Source of the DNA: a virus
Strand: one strand, 5' to 3'
Length of the DNA stretch: 36,200 nucleotides
IMG/VR virus record: IMGVR_UViG_3300045988_075886
Location: 1-36,200 of that record
A model generated the notes under the pieces. The model was not told where the DNA came from, made no database searches, and saw nothing but the letters and a program-made list of their open reading frames with translations. This document shows positions 3,490-36,200 of this stretch, piece by piece. Position 1 is the first letter of the stretch; every line of letters starts with the position of its first letter. The translations under genes and the position numbers were made by a program.

Positions 3490-4552
3490 TCACAGCTACC
3501 CCCTTAATGTAAGCCACATTTTCCAGTATCGATACCTCATATTTCATGTTCGCTTCGATGCTGTATGTATCAGTTAGGACGTTATTTAAGGTCAGCGTGC
3601 AGGCTGTTGCCCCACTGGTGAAGAAAAAGTGATACTGGTTTGCCACATTGGAATCCGTTGGAGTTCCCAGTGTGACCGTCAGGCTTGCCATTTCCGGAAA
3701 AACATACAGCTTATTCGGTTCGAGGGTTACTGTTGTATCTGTGTTCTGCATTTCCTGCCGGGATACAACACCAGAATCTCCTGCCGGTCCCTGCGGTCCA
3801 GTTTCTCCCTGCGGACCCGCTGGTCCCTGTGCCCCGGTCTCGCCTTGTGGTCCCTGTGGTCCAGTGGCTCCGGTCTCTCCCTTGTCGCCTTTATCTCCTT
3901 TGTCGCCCTTTTCTCCTTTCAGGGCTGACAGCTGTACAAGGTCAGTCCATGCGTTATCACCTACATACCGCCACTGAATTGCTGTTCCGCTGTTCTGGAG
4001 TTCAATTTCACGTCCGTCTTTTCCCGGTGCTCCACCTCCACCGCCGTTTTCTTCCAGTTCATCCAGTCTGGCAAGAACCTGTTCGATGATGTCCGGATTC
4101 TCTGCCACAACTGCTTCTGTGGTTTCTAATCCCTCCAAGACTGTAAGCTGTGCAATGGTGGTATTAAACTCTTGCTGTACGATCCCTTCTTCGCCTGTCT
4201 TCTTTAGACAAACGATAAAGCGAATACTTCCTTTATATGCCATTGCATTGCGACCCAAAAGCCAGCTAAATGTAATGTAGTCCCCAGACACTTCTTTGTC
4301 CGTAACGACATATATATCTCCGTTTCCGTTTGCGTTTAGGTAATTAATCCGGATATCAAACGCAGACAAATCAACTTTATCGTATTGCTTGGGCATCTGG
4401 AAATTCAGCCGCCTTACATCTTCGTCTGATTCCACTCCGACGGTCTGGAGACCGGAAGGAATCGTGATAGTTCGCAGGTCATTGTCGATCGTGCAGATTT
4501 CCTCATCCACGGAGTATGTATCCGCTTGCGCCAGCGCTTCTTCTAAGTCCAT
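3479..4552 (-). CDS. Tail fibre / baseplate upper protein with a collagen-like triple-helix region
   Basis: 357 aa with about 20 G-X-Y triplets (GEKGDKGDKGDKGETGATGPQGPQGETGAQGPAGPQGETGPQGPAGDSG). The N-terminal region resembles BppU_N-type baseplate domains. Confidence 0.8.
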   Translation of the reverse strand: MDLEEALAQADTYSVDEEICTIDNDLRTITIPSGLQTVGVESDEDVRRLNFQMPKQYDKVDLSAFDIRINYLNANGNGDIYVVTDKEVSGDYITFSWLLGRNAMAYKGSIRFIVCLKKTGEEGIVQQEFNTTIAQLTVLEGLETTEAVVAENPDIIEQVLARLDELEENGGGGGAPGKDGREIELQNSGTAIQWRYVGDNAWTDLVQLSALKGEKGDKGDKGDKGETGATGPQGPQGETGAQGPAGPQGETGPQGPAGDSGVVSRQEMQNTDTTVTLEPNKLYVFPEMASLTVTLGTPTDSNVANQYHFFFTSGATACTLTLNNVLTDTYSIEANMKYEVSILENVAYIKGVAVNET

Positions 4553-4556
4553 TTCA

Positions 4557-4871
4557 TCACTTCCTTTCCTGCTTTACTTTTATCTCATTCGTTGTGATTC
4601 TGTAGCCATCTCTCTGTCCGACAACCCGCACTCCGAAGTTATCCCAAGTAAGTGCTTCTGCAGGTATTACACAGCTGCCGTTTTTAATCGGCTGCGGATA
4701 TTCCTTTCTCATGCCGGAAAATACAGCCGCCATCCGGCATCCTGCCCATTCCTCGGAAAATAAAAACTCCGCCCGGAGATATCCTTCGGTTCCGGCTACG
4801 ATTCCAGAAAAATCGCAGTCCGGGTCTTTGGTTATCGCTTGGGCGGTTATGATAAATTTTAAAGTTCGCAT
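4557..4871 (-). CDS. Baseplate/tail-fibre-associated structural protein
   Basis: 104-aa ORF in the tail-tip module. Assigned by position only. Confidence 0.4.
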   Translation of the reverse strand: MRTLKFIITAQAITKDPDCDFSGIVAGTEGYLRAEFLFSEEWAGCRMAAVFSGMRKEYPQPIKNGSCVIPAEALTWDNFGVRVVGQRDGYRITTNEIKVKQERK

Positions 4872-4892
4872 ATGACCCTCCTATATTTGTTG

Positions 4893-5738
4893 TCAATCAG
4901 CTACAAAAAAACTTTCATAGAATGGCAACCATACATTTTCTGGAGTATTGATATAAGTTCCACCATTCCGATACCGCGAAAACATAACGGGGCCCTCAAA
5001 TGATATTCTTAATGACCATATGCTTCCCTGAGAACCCTGGCACACTTTGTCAATGTGTGCCATCGGTCGGTATCCCTCTGGCAAGGTGAATATAGTATGT
5101 TGGTCTGTGCCACCTGCAATAGTTTTTTTACACTGCGCAGCCCCGCATATCGTTACTTTGTTCCCTTCCTTTCGATATCTTATAGCCCAAGTTCCTCCAG
5201 TATAATAATCAACAAATTCACTTTCCAATTCCGGGTAAATCCACCCTGTATCCTCGTTTGTGCTACACAGATTAAGTCGTTTTCTGACCTCTGTCACATT
5301 GATTCCGTCCAGTTCTACCTCAAAAACCGGGCAGTCATCAATCAGATCACCGTTTCTTAAATCTCCTTCCGTATATGCCGGAACAGTTGGGTTTGACTCT
5401 GCTGGCGTTCCCTGGATGACAACCCATTCATTTTTTTCGATTTCCGTCTCTTCTTCAACAGTGTACCGATTCACTACAAGATCAATTCGTTTCATTCCTT
5501 GCGTTCCATTTTGGATTGTAATCTCATCATAAGTTCCGTTGTCTACAGATGATATATTCCCGTGATGACACATCATCCCGGATTTGACTCTAAGCAAATT
5601 GTTTGATGCCAATTCCGGCTCCAGGTGTTCTCCGGTCTGCAAGATACAGCTTAGGCTCCCAACAGTCCCTTCAATAAACTGCCGGAACTGCGCTGATGTA
5701 ACATGGTCATCCGCGCCTCTCCCTGATACTATCTTCAT
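4893..5738 (-). CDS. Baseplate protein, candidate receptor-binding component
   Basis: 281 aa. ATGA overlap with the upstream Tal-like gene. Cys-rich, beta-type C-terminal half. Assigned by position between Tal and the fibre. Confidence 0.4.
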   Translation of the reverse strand: MKIVSGRGADDHVTSAQFRQFIEGTVGSLSCILQTGEHLEPELASNNLLRVKSGMMCHHGNISSVDNGTYDEITIQNGTQGMKRIDLVVNRYTVEEETEIEKNEWVVIQGTPAESNPTVPAYTEGDLRNGDLIDDCPVFEVELDGINVTEVRKRLNLCSTNEDTGWIYPELESEFVDYYTGGTWAIRYRKEGNKVTICGAAQCKKTIAGGTDQHTIFTLPEGYRPMAHIDKVCQGSQGSIWSLRISFEGPVMFSRYRNGGTYINTPENVWLPFYESFFVAD

Positions 5739-6739
5739 GATTCTTCTCCTTCCAGTTTGTAAGCCTTTGATTCCACTCCGTTTGTAATTGCATAAGTGAT
5801 ATTTTCGACTGGTTTCGACATATACATCCCAGTCAGATAATCCCTGCCGCCGACAATATCGCCGATATTTACATCTAAGCCCAACGATGCCGCATCCATC
5901 TTAAAGGTCTGCTTATTCATAACCTCCTGCAACTTTTCCCTAGACGTTTCTTCCAGTTCGTCTGTTTCTGTGGATGTGTTTTCGTACACTTCTGCAATCT
6001 CATCCAGCCCAGTATAATACTGTGTCTTCCCAATACTGCCATTTTTCTGCACATATAAATGTAATACGTTCCTGTCCTGCAGTTCGCCTTTGCCAGTAAC
6101 AACCAGATGATTCACGCCGTCCCGGATATCTTCCATTGTATAGTTCAGCTGACAATCTTTGGATAATTCGATTTCGCTGGAATAGTCCACGATTGGAACA
6201 GCTTCAATAAATACCTTCCCCGGTTCTCCTGCATTCCTTCGAAAAGCAATCTGCAGTCTGTATCCTTTGCTTTTTAACATCTTTGTGATGCCATCTAATA
6301 AAGTACAATACCTGTCAAATTGATAATTGCTCATCGCAACTCCAGTGTCTGTATCCGGTACATAAAAAATAGAGTCGGTTCCTTCGTCTCCACCAAATGC
6401 CGGCTCTATCAATTCTTTCATAACTGCATGCAGTTCCCCTGATACCTTCTTATAATCCTGGCCAGCTGGCGGCTCGATGACCTTTTTTGCCAGCCTGCCC
6501 CGCCAGGAGCGGCCTTTGAGTTCTACATAATCTAATGTAGTATCCGTTAATACTTGGCCAATGATCCCGCCGTATTCCGTGCCTGGAATATATATAAAGT
6601 AGGAAAAGGTAAGTTCCGGGATCCAGTTTGACCGTGCGATCTGCACTGAAAAATTCCGGTTTCCATTCAGGTCTACGGTTACATTGGCATTTTGAATAGA
6701 GCCAAGTTCCTTCCGGTTTGGGTCTGCTAAGATTACCAT
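5735..6739 (-). CDS. Tail-associated (Tal-like / Sipho_Gp37-like) baseplate hub protein
   Basis: 334 aa and second gene after the tape measure, the canonical Dit-Tal order. Confidence 0.5.
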   Translation of the reverse strand: MVILADPNRKELGSIQNANVTVDLNGNRNFSVQIARSNWIPELTFSYFIYIPGTEYGGIIGQVLTDTTLDYVELKGRSWRGRLAKKVIEPPAGQDYKKVSGELHAVMKELIEPAFGGDEGTDSIFYVPDTDTGVAMSNYQFDRYCTLLDGITKMLKSKGYRLQIAFRRNAGEPGKVFIEAVPIVDYSSEIELSKDCQLNYTMEDIRDGVNHLVVTGKGELQDRNVLHLYVQKNGSIGKTQYYTGLDEIAEVYENTSTETDELEETSREKLQEVMNKQTFKMDAASLGLDVNIGDIVGGRDYLTGMYMSKPVENITYAITNGVESKAYKLEGEES

Positions 6740-32427: not shown

Positions 32428-32586
32428 TCATTCCGTTGCTTCTTCTTTTTGTTCGCTTTTTTCTTTCTGTTTTCTCTCTGTTACCATTGCTTCTCCCATA
32501 CCTAAGATGTAACCTTTGTTAAAGTCAGACATCTTAGTTACTGTCTCGGCTATGGTCTTTACAATTTTTTTGTCTTTATCAGACAC
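32428..32586 (-). CDS. First lytic-operon ORF, 52 aa (SDKDKKIVKTIAETVTKMSDFNKGYILGMGEAM...)
   Basis: Not in the ORF track. The GTG at 32586 lies 8 nt after AGGAGG, and a competing ATG at 32588 gives only 9 codons. It is tightly packed against the next gene. Confidence 0.45.
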   Translation of the reverse strand: MSDKDKKIVKTIAETVTKMSDFNKGYILGMGEAMVTERKQKEKSEQKEEATE

Positions 32587-32603
32587 ATTGTCCACCTCCT
32601 TAT

Positions 32604-32619
32604 TTGACTTTGTGAGTTT
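32604..32619. promoter_or_regulatory. Operator copy A (TTGACTTTGTGAGTTT) over the +1 region of the lytic promoter
   Basis: A 16-nt sequence identical to 32668-32683, with the two copies 64 bp apart. Confidence 0.55.
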
Positions 32620-32648
32620 AGTATATCATTTCGAGAGTTTTTAGTCAA
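32620..32648 (-). promoter_or_regulatory. Leftward early/lytic promoter
   Basis: Minus strand reads TTGACT (32648..32643), a 17-nt spacer, then TATACT (32625..32620). Confidence 0.65.
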
Positions 32649-32667
32649 TACTTTTCTCTCAAAAATA

Positions 32668-32696
32668 TTGACTTTGTGAGTTTTATGTAATATAAT
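32668..32696 (+). promoter_or_regulatory. Rightward repressor promoter containing operator copy B
   Basis: TTGACT (32668-32673), a 17-nt spacer, then TATAAT (32691-32696). The operator repeat covers the -35 and the spacer. Confidence 0.7.
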
Positions 32697-32725
32697 TAAT
32701 CTCAAGAAAGGTGGTGATGCTACAA

Positions 32726-33097
32726 ATGAGAGAAAGAATTAAAAAAATCAGAAAACATTTTAATTTAACTCAAGTAAAATTTGGAGAACAAATTGGAGTA
32801 AAAGGAAATACAGTAACGAATTATGAAACTGGCTTAAGAACCCCAACAGATGCTGTAATAAAATCGATATGTCGCGAATTTCATATAAGAGAGGAATGGT
32901 TAAGATTCGGAGAAGGCGAAATGTTCATAGAAATGGCAAGAGATGAGCAAATCTCTGAATTTGTGGGAGGAATTTTAACAAATGAGTCGGATTCATTCAA
33001 GAAACGTTTGATTTCCGTTCTCGCCAATTTAACAGAAGAAGAATGGAAGATCTTAGAAAAAAAAGCAAAAGAACTCGTAAACGAAAAAAGGGACTGA
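32726..33097 (+). CDS. CI-like XRE-family HTH repressor without a peptidase S24 domain
   Basis: MRERIKKIRKHFNLTQVKFGEQIGVKGNTVTNYETG is a canonical XRE HTH. The product is 123 aa from the ATG at 32726, which follows AAAGGTGGTGA. The C-terminal half is helical with no Ser/Lys protease motifs. Confidence 0.8.
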   Translation: MRERIKKIRKHFNLTQVKFGEQIGVKGNTVTNYETGLRTPTDAVIKSICREFHIREEWLRFGEGEMFIEMARDEQISEFVGGILTNESDSFKKRLISVLANLTEEEWKILEKKAKELVNEKRD

Positions 33098-33199
33098 TCA
33101 CCTCAGCCCCAGCAACGCTCTTACATAGTAATAAATCAGCCTTAAGTGCCGATCATCTGCTTTGTCGAGCATTTCAAAGATAAGTGTTTTATAATCCAT
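33098..33199 (-). CDS. 33-aa micro-ORF (MDYKTLIFEMLDKADDRHLRLIYYYVRALLGLR) under a LexA-box promoter; candidate antirepressor
   Basis: Not in the ORF track. GAGAGGTGGA RBS 5 nt upstream. Its stop abuts the repressor stop, so the two genes are convergent. Confidence 0.5.
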   Translation of the reverse strand: MDYKTLIFEMLDKADDRHLRLIYYYVRALLGLR

Positions 33200-33221
33200 A
33201 TGTATCCACCTCTCACGAACA

Positions 33222-33235
33222 CGAACAAACGTTCT
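33222..33235. promoter_or_regulatory. LexA (Cheo/SOS) box 1 in the 5' UTR of the micro-ORF
   Basis: CGAACAAACGTTCT has a perfect GAAC-N4-GTTC core. Confidence 0.6.
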
Positions 33236-33252
33236 AAAGTAGCGATACATAA

Positions 33253-33281
33253 ATTATAGAACAAACGTTCTAAATTTGCAA
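33253..33281 (-). promoter_or_regulatory. Near-consensus promoter for the micro-ORF with LexA box 2 (33258-33271) in its spacer
   Basis: Minus strand reads TTGCAA, a 17-nt spacer, then TATAAT. The spacer contains AGAACGTTTGTTCT. Confidence 0.6.
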
Positions 33282-33295
33282 TAAAAATTCATTAA

Positions 33296-33324
33296 TTGGA
33301 TAAAATTGTACAATTAAATATAAA
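33296..33324 (+). promoter_or_regulatory. Putative promoter of the Ltp-like gene
   Basis: TTGGAT (33296-33301), a 17-nt spacer, then TATAAA (33319-33324). Confidence 0.4.
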
Positions 33325-33363
33325 ATTTTTTCTTATTATAAAGTTGCTCAAAGGAGGAAAAGC

Positions 33364-34311
33364 ATGAAAAAGAAAATTGCCATAGTTGGCGGCATTTTAT
33401 TAACAATATTAGTTGTTTATGTCATAGTCATCAATACTAAACCTTCAAACTCTACAGATTCTTCTACATCAACAGTCACTTCAGCCGAGAAAAAAGATGA
33501 TTATAGCAATTTTAAAGAATACAAAGATGAAGATTTTACTTACAAAATACCTTCATCATGGAGCAAGTCAATACAAGGTGATACGACGTATTATTACAGA
33601 AATGATGATGATAGCATGGACGGAATGATAATGATATATAAAACAGAATTGGATGAATCCATCATGGAGCCAGGAAGTTTTGATTCATATGTAGAAGGTT
33701 TCGAAGAAAGCGAAGAATACTTAGGCGAAACAAAAAAACGAGATATAACCATCGATGGCATTGATGCAAAACAAATGTCTGCAAAAACCAAAATTCAAGG
33801 AGAAGAATCTTATATCGTGTCATCTGTATTTGATTATGATGAAGGTATTGTAACTTTTGGTTTTCTTACACGAGAGAAAGATCAGTACGCTGATGAATAC
33901 AATGCAATCCTAGAGTCTATTGATATAATTGATAACACAAGCGAAACAACTACCGAGAAATCAACAACGGAATCGACCACTGAGAAAGTTACGACAGAAA
34001 AAACGACACAAAAAGATACAACGCCAACTACCGGAGAAATAAACGCACTAAACAGCGCATATGACTATTTAGATTATTCTGCTTTTTCAAGATCTGGATT
34101 AATTGAGCAACTTGAATATGAAGGATATACTAATGATGAAGCAACATATGCTGCTGACAATTGTGGGGCTGATTGGAACGAACAGGCCGTAAAATCTGCA
34201 CAAGAATATCTTGACTACGGATCTTTTTCAAAGATCAGATTAATTGAACAATTAGAGTACGAAGGATTTACAAAAGCGCAAGCTACATACGGCGTAAATC
34301 AAGTTTATTAA
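33364..34311 (+). CDS. ltp: Ltp-type superinfection-exclusion protein: N-terminal TM anchor, unknown beta-rich domain, Thr/Glu-rich linker and two Ltp repeats
   Basis: The C-terminal tandem repeats ALNSAYDYLDYSAFSRSGLIEQLEYEGYTNDEATYAA and AVKSAQEYLDYGSFSKIRLIEQLEYEGFTKAQATYGV match the Lipoprotein_Ltp repeat pattern. The gene lies between the repressor and integrase genes, as in phage TP-J34. Confidence 0.8.
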   Translation: MKKKIAIVGGILLTILVVYVIVINTKPSNSTDSSTSTVTSAEKKDDYSNFKEYKDEDFTYKIPSSWSKSIQGDTTYYYRNDDDSMDGMIMIYKTELDESIMEPGSFDSYVEGFEESEEYLGETKKRDITIDGIDAKQMSAKTKIQGEESYIVSSVFDYDEGIVTFGFLTREKDQYADEYNAILESIDIIDNTSETTTEKSTTESTTEKVTTEKTTQKDTTPTTGEINALNSAYDYLDYSAFSRSGLIEQLEYEGYTNDEATYAADNCGADWNEQAVKSAQEYLDYGSFSKIRLIEQLEYEGFTKAQATYGVNQVY

Positions 34312-34320
34312 AACAAAACC

Positions 34321-34340
34321 GCCCGGCGGCAACCGGGCGT
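34321..34340. terminator. GC-rich hairpin after the Ltp-like gene, with a T-tract only on the minus-strand side
   Basis: CGCCCGG cggcaa CCGGGCG forms a 7-bp all-GC stem. It is preceded by AAAACAAAAC on the plus strand. Confidence 0.4.
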
Positions 34341-34413
34341 GCAACTGAAAATTATAACACGTGGCTAAAGTGCTATACTTTTCCATAGACAGTTAAAGTA
34401 TACCATTTTTAGC

Positions 34414-34440
34414 TACACCTAACAAGGGGTGTATTTTTTG
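34414..34440 (+). terminator. Intrinsic terminator 28 nt upstream of the integrase start codon
   Basis: TACACC taacaagg GGTGTA followed by TTTTTT. Confidence 0.6.
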
Positions 34441-34468
34441 TACCCTTTTTTAGAAAGGATGAACAAAT

Positions 34469-35566
34469 ATGGCTGTAAAATACAAAAAAGGGAAAGATGG
34501 ATACTTTTCTACTCGTGTCTGGGATGGTACCTATACTAAGAACGGTGAAAAACACTATAAGCATCTGCGATCCAAGAAAAGTAGCAAAGATCTGGAACGC
34601 AAGGTAAAAGAGCTGGAATACCAGGTAAAGGAACGAAACGTCGTTAAGAGAGACGATATTACCTTTTACGATTATGCAAGGCGTTGGAGAACTTTATACA
34701 AAGATTCAAAAGCGAATGGAACGAAGATGATGTATGACCATATCATAAAAACTTACCTACGCGAACTGGAATTTGTTCGATTGCAGGACATCCAGCGTGT
34801 CCACTTGCAACTTGTTCTAAACAATGCAAATAATAAGCCGCGGACACAACAACAAATCTTGATGACCTTCCGACAGATCGTTGACGCCGCTGTCGCCGAA
34901 CGATTAATGCCAGCCAATGTAGCAGATGATATTCTTCGGAGCATGCAGAGAGTAAAATATAAAGCTCCGGAAAAAAGGGCACTGCTTCCACACGAACGAG
35001 AAGCTGTTTTTAAGGCGGATTTTAATCCGATGGATAAAATCTTCGTCTTTTTAATTTACGGCTGTGGAATAAGGCGAGGGGAAGCCCTGGCGTTAACTGT
35101 GGATGATATATCTTTCGACGAAAGAACTCTGTACATAAATAAAGCATATGATTTTATTACCATAAAGGAACCGAAAACAAAGAATGGGTACCGTACTCTT
35201 CCGATTCCGGATATTATTTATCCTGCTATTGAGCAGTATGTGTCTGTCTTAAAGGATCAAGAGAAAACTTATCTATTTACTACCAAGCGTGGAGAATTAA
35301 TGACCAGGAGCGCATACAGACGGATGTGGGAACGAATTATAAAAAAAATGGACAAAGTATCGGATACGCCAATCGAAGGGCTTACAGCGCATATTTTTCG
35401 GCATAACTACTGCACGAACCTTTGCTATGAAGTCCCACGCATATCCATTAAGATGGTTGCGAAATTGCTGGGGGATAAAGAAGCGACGGTCCTTAATGTG
35501 TACAATCACTTGATGATGGAAAAAGAGGATTCTACTGCTGCCATAAACGCCGCTTTGAACTTTTAA
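34469..35566 (+). CDS. int: Tyrosine integrase with an N-terminal arm-binding (AP2-like) domain
   Basis: 365 aa with catalytic signature ...GIRRGEAL...HIFRHNYCTNL...LLGDKEATVLNVYNHL. It lies adjacent to the attP-like region. Confidence 0.92.
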   Translation: MAVKYKKGKDGYFSTRVWDGTYTKNGEKHYKHLRSKKSSKDLERKVKELEYQVKERNVVKRDDITFYDYARRWRTLYKDSKANGTKMMYDHIIKTYLRELEFVRLQDIQRVHLQLVLNNANNKPRTQQQILMTFRQIVDAAVAERLMPANVADDILRSMQRVKYKAPEKRALLPHEREAVFKADFNPMDKIFVFLIYGCGIRRGEALALTVDDISFDERTLYINKAYDFITIKEPKTKNGYRTLPIPDIIYPAIEQYVSVLKDQEKTYLFTTKRGELMTRSAYRRMWERIIKKMDKVSDTPIEGLTAHIFRHNYCTNLCYEVPRISIKMVAKLLGDKEATVLNVYNHLMMEKEDSTAAINAALNF

Positions 35567-35570
35567 AAAT

Positions 35571-35590
35571 TGGAACAAAAATGGAACAAA
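35571..35590 (+). repeat. Arm-type integrase binding repeats, left arm (TGGAACAAAAATGGAACAAA)
   Basis: TGGAACA motifs occur at 35571, 35582 and 35623. The same 18-mer recurs at 35837-35854 on the other side of the core. Confidence 0.5.
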
Positions 35591-35739
35591 TGATTTTTAT
35601 TAAAACCGTTTACTTTTGATAATGGAACAAAAAAGGGAATATTTGTAAAAGAAAAAATTAGAACTATGAGATGCCGGAAACCCGCATAAATACAAGAAAA
35701 ACGCTGCTTCTGGCATCTTCCAAAAGACAACGTTTCCGA

Positions 35740-35786
35740 TGAGCGTGCGGGGATTCGAACCCCGGACAACTTGATTAAAAGTCAAA
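35740..35786 (-). other. attP core: 3' portion (anticodon stem to acceptor end) of a tRNA-Lys(UUU)-like sequence
   Basis: Minus strand reads TTTGA CTTTTAA TCAAG ttgtc CGGGG TTCGAAT CCCCG CACGCTC A, giving perfect anticodon and T arms. The 5' half does not form a D arm or pair as an acceptor stem. Confidence 0.6.
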
Positions 35787-35836
35787 AGACCTAATGCTGT
35801 TGTATGCCCATAAAATAAGCCATTTTCCCACAAACG

Positions 35837-35854
35837 TGGAACAAAAATGGAACA
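35837..35854 (+). repeat. Arm-type integrase binding repeats, right arm (TGGAACAAAAATGGAACA)
   Basis: Identical 18-mer to 35571-35588, in direct orientation. Confidence 0.5.
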
Positions 35855-35912
35855 TCATGTATTATATAGTAAGCATATATTTTTGTCAATAAAAATTTTT
35901 TTAAGTCAAATT

Positions 35913-35958
35913 CCATCGCGGTCGCTTCTATATATAAGGGGGAGGACGACCGCAATGG
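35913..35958. repeat. GC-rich 12-bp inverted repeat (CCATCGCGGTCG ... CGACCGCAATGG) with a 22-nt AT-rich loop
   Basis: 11 of 12 positions are complementary. It is conspicuous within an AT-rich non-coding region. Confidence 0.6.
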
Positions 35959-36113
35959 AGATAATAAGAAGGTATTTAATAATCTGATTATAATATATTT
36001 ACATACAAAAAGAAAGCCGGAGATTTCTCCCCTGCCTGATACAATTTTTATATATGCGCCTTTCTTAAGAAGGAGTTCGCAGAAAATGGCTGTTTTGCGC
36101 GGTTTTTCGTATA

Positions 36114-36135
36114 TTTGTCACTAGTTTGTCACTAG
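36114..36135 (+). repeat. Two tandem 11-bp repeats (TTTGTCACTAG x2) upstream of the junction promoter
   Basis: Perfect tandem duplication with one helical turn of periodicity, ending 21 nt upstream of the -35. Confidence 0.8.
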
Positions 36136-36156
36136 TAAAAAAATGAAAAAAATCTC

Positions 36157-36185
36157 TTGACTATTCGTAACGAATGGTATATAAT
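36157..36185 (+). promoter_or_regulatory. Consensus promoter with a palindromic spacer element, driving ORF 42-257 across the junction
   Basis: TTGACT (36157-36162), a 17-nt spacer containing ATTCGtaaCGAAT, then TATAAT (36180-36185). Confidence 0.65.
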
Positions 36186-36200
36186 TAAATCAAGATAAGA
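36176..36200. repeat. Right copy of the 25-nt direct terminal repeat
   Basis: Identical to 1-25. Confidence 0.9.

Follow-up and report, generated by a model that had tools for sequence, protein, structure and literature searches.

A probable LexA-gated micro-antirepressor gene tail-to-tail with a non-cleavable XRE repressor in prophages of gut Clostridia

Introduction

How can a prophage respond to DNA damage if its repressor carries no domain for self-cleavage? To our knowledge, most prophages of gut Lachnospiraceae and Oscillospiraceae have short XRE repressors without an autocleavage domain, and the question is raised by one stretch of viral DNA of 36,200 nucleotides (IMG/VR record IMGVR_UViG_3300045988_075886, positions 1 to 36,200), which was analysed as a whole and is referred to here as the window. 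On the minus strand between positions 33,098 and 33,281 lies an open reading frame (ORF) of only 33 codons, here called the micro-ORF, with two LexA-type boxes at its promoter. It runs head-on into the gene of a short repressor with a helix-turn-helix (HTH) domain. An earlier note on this region had proposed that host LexA gates a very small antirepressor, an antisense or transcriptional-interference arm of the lysis-lysogeny switch, or both. From the comparative analysis described below, the element probably encodes a micro-antirepressor that is gated by LexA and acts on the adjacent, non-cleavable XRE repressor.

The micro-ORF and its peptide family

The micro-ORF (33098..33199, minus strand) comprises 33 codons and a stop, with its ATG at 33199 and its TGA at 33100..33098, and encodes MDYKTLIFEMLDKADDRHLRLIYYYVRALLGLR, the candidate antirepressor. 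It is preceded, 5 nt before the ATG, by the ribosome-binding site (RBS) GAGAGGTGGA (33205..33214, minus strand), and a purine-rich RBS occupies the same place in relatives. The TGA of the micro-ORF abuts that of the repressor gene (33095..33097), the two together forming TGATCA. Direct reading confirmed the RBS, the 33-codon ORF and the abutting convergent stops that the earlier note had described.

An exhaustive HMMER search against 1.84e9 representative proteins placed the peptide in a family of 21 representative clusters at E<=1e-3, with a core of about MDYKxLIIEMLDxADxRxLRLIYxYIKALLGL. Over 31 distinct ORFs of 99 nt, the ratio of nonsynonymous to synonymous polymorphism (pN/pS) was 0.28, and it was 0.39 for codons 13-33, which had been left unconstrained by the search pattern, while the two other frames, used as controls, gave 0.89-1.36. 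The micro-ORF is a real protein-coding gene under purifying selection. Gene callers predict the exact product of 33 amino acids (aa) on 22 contigs, many of them 35-38 kb long, and it is unannotated on all of them. A longer reading of 50 codons from the ATG at 33250 was rejected, as it begins within the −10/+1 region, the conservation of the family starts at MDYK and the gene callers choose the 33-aa product.

The peptide was modelled by AlphaFold2 as a helix (residues 3-13), a turn and a second helix (residues 16-30), with a predicted local distance difference test score (pLDDT) of 79. It is charged and amphipathic, with 11 of 33 residues being D, E, K or R and no hydrophobic stretch longer than about 14 residues. 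No match to the peptide was obtained in Pfam, PHROG or the PDB, and a profile search of the PDB gave none at E<=10. The annotated phage records of INPHARED contained nothing similar, with one weak blastn match of 128 nt and no significant tblastn match, and no Rfam match was found at the locus. No earlier description of this micro-protein family in Clostridia was found in the literature. An SOS-induced type I toxin resembling TisB or DinQ was also considered for this gene and rejected, given that no membrane-spanning helix is apparent by composition and no antisense RNA was matched in Rfam.

A distant subfamily of the peptide, MDYKKMIIELLDKVQSQxTLxRVYxLLEYLYxRE, was observed on contigs L160, L190, L185, L200, L156, L194 and L145. 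Members of this subfamily have neither a linked repressor homolog nor a LexA box and often stand in tandem with other small ORFs, within elements resembling plasmids or integrative and conjugative elements which carry ParA, integrase or primase.

Linkage and co-variation with the convergent repressor

The prophage repressor gene (32726..33097, plus strand; ATG at 32726, with alternative starts at 32711 and 32717) encodes a protein of 123 aa, a length also given by the gene callers. Its Pfam matches are to HTH families only (HTH_3 at 7.8e-11), and no S24 or peptidase domain was matched. It had been described as a 123-aa HTH-only protein lacking S24; the length and the lack of S24 hold, whereas 'HTH-only' does not, as the AlphaFold2 model (pLDDT 87) shows five HTH helices in residues 1-61, a linker and then helices at 72-85, 91-100 and 104-122, the last three forming a C-terminal domain of about 55 residues. 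The region encoding this domain (residues 67-123; 32924..33094, plus strand) is the proposed target of the micro-protein. A profile of the repressor matched the solved structures 9sf2_A and 9iaq_A over the HTH domain only (residues 4-66). The best full-length fold matches were again 9iaq, which is AimC of BMBtp14, and 9sf2, deposited as 'Phage Phi106 repressor in complex with AimX', with template modelling (TM) scores of about 0.5 over 109-116 columns; SinR was also among the fold matches.

To look at this linkage from the side of the peptide, loci were fetched solely by a degenerate pattern for the peptide N-terminus, giving 144 hidden Markov model (HMM) hits. A convergent repressor homolog (E 1e-26 to 1e-60) was present in 105 of the 144, representing 49 distinct peptides, and the stop-to-stop gap between the two genes ranged from −4 to 50 nt, most often being 3 nt. 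The repressor itself has 653 homologs, and among the repressor-anchored genome loci a convergent micro-ORF preceded by an RBS and showing the same helix-turn-helix pattern was found near the repressor stop in 27 of 50. These loci are from Blautia, Enterocloster, Anaerotruncus, Pseudoflavonifractor and other Lachnospiraceae and Oscillospiraceae. No relatives were found when viral contigs were scanned with the single repressor sequence. On viral contig L007 the full layout is repeated, including a divergent first lytic gene of about 55 aa.

Within 33 cognate pairs, divergence of the peptide followed that of the repressor's C-terminal domain (Spearman 0.65, Mantel p about 5e-4) and not that of its HTH domain (Spearman 0.08, p 0.23). 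Distances of the HTH and C-terminal domains were themselves uncorrelated (rho 0.06), and domain shuffling is therefore indicated. Contigs L152 and L030 illustrate this, their HTH halves being unrelated, their C-terminal domains identical and their peptides nearly so, and contig L119 does so within a single locus (4082..5800), where each of three tandem cassettes combines a type of C-terminal domain with its own type of peptide.

The repressor family as a whole appears modular, with unrelated HTH halves joined to identical C-terminal halves as in the pair just named, which on sequence comparison implies recombination at the linker between the domain for DNA specificity and that for oligomerization. 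Two or three tandem cassettes of an XRE repressor and a convergent micro-ORF were observed not only on L119 but also on L110, L171 and L151, lying between the lytic switch and the integrase gene and each with a different HTH domain. Such arrays may confer additional immunity, every cassette having an SOS-gated antirepressor of its own.

A comparison of the peptide and repressor profiles with hhalign aligned peptide residues 3-18 (YKTLIFEMLDKADDRH) to repressor residues 91-106 (FKKRLISVLANLTEEE) with a score of 18.0 (P 0.0011). The reversed profile scored 9.1 and 200 column shuffles scored 6.8 +/- 1.5 with a maximum of 12.8, none of the 200 reaching 18; an earlier, shallower comparison of the two profiles had given P 0.024. 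The helix-turn-helix arrangement of the modelled peptide also agrees in geometry with the repressor model. This weak resemblance is suggestive of a peptide that may mimic the penultimate helix of the repressor in the manner of SinI.

Promoter and LexA-type boxes

The promoter of the micro-ORF was identified by direct reading as a −35 hexamer TTGCAA (33276..33281, minus strand), which aligns with the TTGACA conserved in relatives, and a −10 hexamer TATAAT (33253..33258, minus strand), both being recovered also by a promoter scan. The positions and the 17-nt spacer agree with those reported earlier; the term 'consensus' used there does not, as the scan gave 10 of 12 matches to the consensus, and the promoter is better described as near-consensus. 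Box 1, AGAACGTTTGTTCT (33258..33271, minus strand, core 33270..33259), is within the spacer and shares one base, the first, with the −10 hexamer. Box 2, AGAACGTTTGTTCG (33222..33235, minus strand, core 33234..33223), is in the 5' untranslated region (UTR) at about +13 to +24. One box thus overlaps and the other flanks the core promoter, and the placement in relatives is equal or equivalent.

Both box cores are perfect GAACGTTTGTTC and conform to the palindromic core GAAC-N4-GTT[CT] of Firmicutes and Clostridia. They lie in a 16-nt sequence, TTTAGAACGTTTGTTC, which is present as two identical copies (33274..33259 and 33238..33223, minus strand). The two perfect GAAC-N4-GTTC cores claimed in the earlier note were borne out by direct reading and by a scan of the window, in whose 36.2 kb these are the only such sites, both within 48 nt of one promoter. 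The chance expectation is 0.43 perfect sites per window, and at least two anywhere in the window occurred in 5 of 100 shuffles.

The loci of the 49 distinct linked peptides were compared with a background of 1.29 Mb. Upstream of the micro-ORF the density of perfect boxes is 3.6 per kb, compared with 0.029 per kb in the background, an enrichment of about 125-fold; when up to one mismatch is allowed, the densities are 8.8 and 0.29 per kb, and 39 of the 49 loci have at least one such box. The boxes of the background in the fetched loci are found before phage genes and further micro-ORFs only, and no host recA or lexA operator was among them. The aligned upstream regions read, in order, TTGACA, CGAACAAATGTTTG, TATAAT, ATCGCTACTTTA, G(A/T)ACGTGCGTT(C/T) and the RBS. 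In this alignment CGAACAAATGTTTG is the consensus of the box 1 equivalent, and G(A/T)ACGTGCGTT(C/T), the equivalent of box 2, is located in many relatives some 29 nt ahead of the ATG. The GAAC and GTT[CT] arms are retained in the boxes of relatives, while the N4, the flanks and the register are variable, with at least three registers of the box found among the lineages (abutting the −10 hexamer, displaced upstream from there by 2 nt, or upstream of the −35 hexamer). Over-extended relatives of the peptide start with 'MFYN..TLER', which is the translation of TTGTTCTATAAT...ACTTTAGAACG, and these relatives therefore retain the DNA of box, −10 hexamer and box.

The motif GAAC-N4-GTT[CT] is the LexA motif of B. 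subtilis, C. acetobutylicum as well as C. perfringens, and that of C. difficile is alike (PMC4234289). The C. difficile recA operator AGAACAAATGTTTG, to which purified LexA bound in surface plasmon resonance (PMC4234289), is identical to the core of the box 1 consensus. From these correspondences we infer that the boxes would be operators of the host LexA, with the motif having been taken from B. subtilis and Clostridia species and possibly not being this host's own.

In 21 viral contigs (L001-L021) the exact overlap of box and −10 hexamer, GAACGTTTGTTCTATAAT, was also observed ahead of small or medium genes that are unrelated, and several of these contigs carry a second box about 25 nt downstream. 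This suggests that the overlap is a common design of LexA-gated promoters in Firmicutes phages.

Between the −10 hexamer and box 2 lies ATCGCTACTTTAG (33234..33246, minus strand), predicted to be the first 13 or so transcribed bases. This segment is nearly invariant in 24 distinct 5' UTRs, despite synonymous sites in the ORF being near saturation and box 2 having decayed in some lineages. It is not an operator of the repressor, because it is conserved across repressors with differing HTH domains. No conserved RNA structure was detected by RNAalifold for this segment in the same 24 UTRs. A 5'-UTR hairpin sequestering the RBS, which appears when the window is folded alone, was rejected as a feature of the family since it is not conserved (RNAalifold −0.96 kcal/mol, no compensatory pairs).

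Terminator at the convergent junction

The earlier note had seen no terminator after the micro-ORF and had reasoned that read-through would be antisense to the repressor mRNA. An intrinsic terminator of the micro-ORF transcript is nevertheless present on the minus strand (33080..33110), with a stem-loop at 33110..33090 and a T-run at 33089..33080. The hairpin, GGGGCTGA-GGTGA-TCAGTCCC, has 8 pairs and the loop GGTGA and is followed by TTTTTTCGTT; it is formed from the 3' ends of both convergent genes and spans both stops. A hairpin and T-run overlapping or following the micro-ORF stop was found in 48 of 49 unique-peptide loci, the criterion being a hairpin dG <= −6 kcal/mol followed by a T-run. 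The read-through argument loses its basis because this conserved terminator would end the transcript.

On the plus strand no T-run follows the hairpin at 33080..33110, and the next terminator-like site is after the ltp gene, at 34414..34433 (up to 34441). With no plus-strand terminator-like site before that point, the repressor gene and ltp may share a transcript that runs antisense through the micro-gene and its promoter. Such transcription from the repressor gene to ltp may damp leaky expression of the micro-ORF in the lysogen, which is the reverse of the interference that had been proposed.

Proposed mechanism and alternative explanations

In the uninduced lysogen, dimers of host LexA would sit on both operators and shut the near-consensus sigma-A promoter. 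Upon DNA damage, RecA-stimulated cleavage of LexA would free this promoter, and a transcript of about 160 nt, predicted to end at the terminator shared by the abutting convergent 3' ends, would be translated to the 33-residue helix-turn-helix protein. It is proposed that this peptide binds the three-helix C-terminal (oligomerization) domain of the repressor, replacing a partner subunit as in SinI/SinR or AimX/AimC. The repressor would then no longer oligomerize or bind its operators, and this would release the divergent early lytic promoter. The micro-protein is proposed as the phage's link to the SOS response because the repressor has no S24 autocleavage domain.

Three other explanations were weighed against a LexA-gated micro-antirepressor. 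An antisense RNA or transcriptional interference could lower repressor expression, with the ORF being incidental or secondary. Such an effect could be expected from convergent genes with abutting stops, as the transcript would run about 10-20 nt into the 3' end of the repressor gene, overlapping the last bases of its mRNA before the T-run, intrinsic terminators are leaky, and the lack of a plus-strand terminator between the repressor gene and ltp means that convergent transcription occurs in some form. It is nonetheless very unlikely to be the function of the locus, given that the conserved terminator lies exactly at the ORF end in the window and in 48 of 49 relatives and that the ORF is under clear purifying selection at the protein level; moreover, when the overlap was recoded in phage φ106 and, separately, the start codon changed to a stop, it was the protein and not the overlap that turned out to be required. 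The earlier gating proposal consequently fares differently in its two arms: that of a micro-antirepressor is favoured by the selected gene, its linkage to the repressor, the box enrichment and the φ106 analogy, and the antisense arm is weakened. An explanation that we regard as improbable, though less so, is that of an SOS-induced micro-protein with some other target, such as a modulator acting on LexA or RecA, an inhibitor of cell division, a small toxin or an effector that excludes superinfection. Very small effectors are frequent in SOS regulons, and the small phage protein gp7 of GIL01 binds LexA (PMC4551915). The gene is, however, almost always tail-to-tail with this repressor family, the peptide co-varies with the C-terminal and not the HTH domain even within the one locus of L119, a charged, amphipathic peptide without a membrane-spanning stretch argues against a TisB-like toxin, and no other SOS input to the repressor is recognisable.

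The boxes could also be operators of a regulator other than LexA, encoded by the phage or by the host, in which case the gene would not be SOS-gated. The identity of the two copies over 16 nt exceeds the LexA core and would fit such a regulator, as would the adjacent invariant segment of 13 nt and the absence of the boxes in some relatives. This explanation has the least probability of the three and is hardly to be expected when the core is the exact LexA motif of Firmicutes and clostridia, its consensus equals an operator for which LexA binding has been demonstrated, and the same overlap of box and −10 hexamer precedes other genes in the 21 viral contigs. The boxes are also conserved across phages with unrelated repressor HTH domains, because of which they are not considered to be operators of the phage repressor.

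Several observations weigh against a LexA-gated micro-antirepressor and should be noted. A recognisable box is absent in about 10 of the 49 linked loci (e.g. L030, L045, L047 and L062) and box 2 has decayed in several lineages, because of which SOS gating is regarded as frequent and not universal. The invariant segment at +1 to +13 falls outside this explanation, and the distant peptide subfamily occurs without this repressor, in elements with ParA, integrase or primase, which would equally suit a micro-protein with another target. The correlation between peptide and C-terminal domain is explicable in part by adjacent coding regions with no need for an interaction, since the DNA of the C-terminal domain adjoins the peptide gene and linkage contributes to the correlation. 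The similarity to the repressor helix spans only 16 columns with an HHalign probability of 21%, and in sequence the peptide is homologous neither to AimX nor to any chain of solved structure.

As to the origin of the micro-gene, an inverted duplication of the repressor gene's 3' end could have produced it, giving a self-derived decoy of the repressor's own oligomerization helices, similar to SinI, under the control of LexA and in the form of a modular cassette. In such a case peptide residues 3-33 would correspond to repressor residues 91-121, with both frames ending within two codons of one point and the palindromic junction serving as the terminator. We hold this origin to be unlikely. If true, inverted duplication would offer non-cleavable XRE repressors a general way, and one that evolves easily, of gaining an SOS input. 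Units of C-terminal domain and peptide would recombine with different HTH domains and stack up to three cassettes, as on L119, and such stacked cassettes may give several SOS-releasable immunities per prophage across human-gut Clostridia.

Genomic context of the prophage

The window is a siphovirus-type prophage of roughly 35 kb with the micro-gene located inside its lysogeny module, and the hosts of these prophages are gut Clostridia-type bacteria. A long minus-strand operon encodes an Erf-like protein, large terminase, portal, major head protein, a tape measure protein of 1,322 aa and endolysin. On the plus strand are the gene for the repressor, that for a superinfection-exclusion lipoprotein of the Ltp type (33364..34311) and that for a tyrosine integrase (34469..35566). 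Of the 16 window proteins searched against Pfam, none showed an S24, ImmA-type or Ant/KilAC domain.

The lysis-lysogeny switch region (32604..32696, both strands) was delimited by a promoter scan and a repeat search and contains divergent promoters and repeats. The promoter scan predicted a repressor promoter TTGACT-17-TATAAT (32668..32696, plus strand) and an early lytic operon promoter TTGACT-17-TATACT (32648..32620, minus strand). The sequence TTGACTTTGTGAGTTT is present twice (at 32604 and 32668) in addition to an inverted repeat at 32643..32673, and there is no LexA box in the switch region. The first gene of the early lytic operon (32595..32428, minus strand, 55 aa) occupies the usual position of Cro; it has no HTH match in Pfam and its sole PHROG match is of unknown function. 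This gene is conserved at about 50-55 aa in L007 (~6500..6646) and L119 (3735..3884), with the motif ...KMxDFxKGYxLGM....

At 35748..35765 (minus strand) a weak match (14 bits, E 0.008) was obtained to Rfam model RF00023, tmRNA, over positions 346-363 at its 3' end. It adjoins the end of the integrase gene and may be an attachment-site copy of ssrA; no complete tmRNA or tRNA was detected in the window by ARAGORN. It should also be noted that contigs L213, L216 and L218 have a peptide and repressor identical to those of L211 and L212 and differ from them in the gene between the micro-ORF and the integrase gene, where an unannotated protein of 218 aa replaces the 315-aa Ltp lipoprotein, a mosaic exchange in the superinfection-exclusion slot.

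Significance

An unannotated family of proteins of about 33 residues, encoded on many human-gut metagenome contigs, is likely the SOS input of prophages with repressors of this type. The family is of interest mainly for being unannotated, widespread in prophages of human-gut Clostridia and directly testable. A simple signature for finding further cases combines a LexA box over the −10 hexamer and +1 with a micro-ORF, a shared terminator and a repressor gene in convergent orientation. Expression of the peptide, or mutation of the boxes or the start codon, would provide a handle for predicting and manipulating the induction of prophages in gut Clostridia. The locus also illustrates how many functional micro-genes are missed by phage annotation.

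Comparison with known systems

Tum of coliphage 186 is a protein of about 146 aa. This antirepressor and those of the Gifsy prophages are several-fold larger than the window peptide and unrelated to it in sequence, are encoded elsewhere in the genome and have a LexA box of the type CTGT-N8-ACAG, and some act in trans on several prophages. The likeness is that host LexA represses an antirepressor gene and that a non-cleavable repressor is inactivated without proteolysis (Lemire et al. 2011, PMC3121763). The much smaller product and convergent layout that the earlier note had set apart from these systems do differ from Tum and Gifsy, but they are not unprecedented, as AimX of φ106 has 29 aa and is encoded convergently.

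In the Sar-SroF pair of the Firmicutes phages SPbeta and phi3T, an SOS box likewise lies upstream of a small, LexA-controlled antirepressor gene, the repressor is not cleavable by RecA and the antirepressors are specific for their cognate partner (bioRxiv 10.1101/2025.11.27.690993). Sar differs in having about 100 aa, a mixed alpha/beta fold, an intertwined dimer and a mechanism of DNA mimicry (bioRxiv 10.1101/2025.11.27.690993), and its target is not an XRE protein but an integrase-fold repressor which binds DNA as a monomer, in another gene layout. The transcription factor-small ORF (TF-smORF) and Qtip systems of Vibrio also comprise small, orphan, phage-specific proteins that inactivate a cognate cI without proteolysis (Silpe et al. 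2023, PMC10432266). The smORFs of the linear plasmid-like phages (smORF72 of 171 nt and smORF63 of 183 nt) encode 56-60 aa, about twice the size of the window peptide; these systems are independent of SOS and are switched on instead by quorum sensing or by a transcription factor that is encoded divergently, and they act on autoproteolytic repressors (PMC10432266).

Outside of phages, the SinI-SinR pair of B. subtilis (PDB 1b0n) offers a small helical protein which resembles the C-terminal oligomerization helices of an XRE-type repressor and which, as a heterodimer, prevents assembly of the repressor on DNA. SinI-SinR is a chromosomal switch of biofilm formation and sporulation under Spo0A, not under SOS. 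Homology to the window pair is undetectable, and mimicry in the window pair is put forward as a hypothesis.

The closest parallel is the AimX-AimC pair of Bacillus arbitrium phages. In φ106, a LexA site is closely followed by aimX, whose product has 29 aa and which is convergent with aimC with an overlap of 30 bp, while AimC is a short XRE repressor that is not RecA-responsive (Kabel et al., bioRxiv 10.1101/2025.11.23.689978). AimX binds the C-terminal oligomerization domain of AimC, blocks both oligomerization and DNA binding and co-varies with AimC, and recoding and start-codon mutants of φ106 showed that the antisense overlap is dispensable (bioRxiv 10.1101/2025.11.23.689978). The search of Kabel et al. 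was of Bacillus genomes only, and very few aimC/aimL homologs were found outside arbitrium (bioRxiv 10.1101/2025.11.23.689978).

In both systems a tiny ORF (29 aa in φ106, 29-80 aa in its family and 33 codons in the window) lies behind a LexA site and is convergent with a short XRE repressor gene (80-140 aa), touching or overlapping its 3' end. The repressors share an HTH domain joined to a helical C-terminal oligomerization domain and the lack of an autocleavage domain, AimC proteins having been the best full-length fold matches of the window repressor. In both, the repressor gene is also divergent from the early lytic operon and the small protein co-varies with the repressor. The window differs in having two LexA boxes in place of one site plus control by AimR, and no aimR or aimP was apparent, there being no minus-strand ORF of at least 110 aa in 33282-36200, a stretch which holds the plus-strand ltp and integrase genes. 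The window peptide has no detectable sequence similarity to AimX (the PDB profile library includes 9sf2), the sequence similarity of the repressors is confined to the HTH domain, and the C-terminal domain has three helices where that of BMBtp14 AimC has two helices and a beta-hairpin. The first lytic gene of the window (55 aa) also showed no HTH signature in Pfam, unlike AimL, and the hosts are gut Clostridia, not Bacillus. Taken together, the comparison suggests that the logic of AimX/AimC, described only in 2025 for arbitrium phages of Bacillus, does not depend on arbitrium and is not limited to Bacilli.

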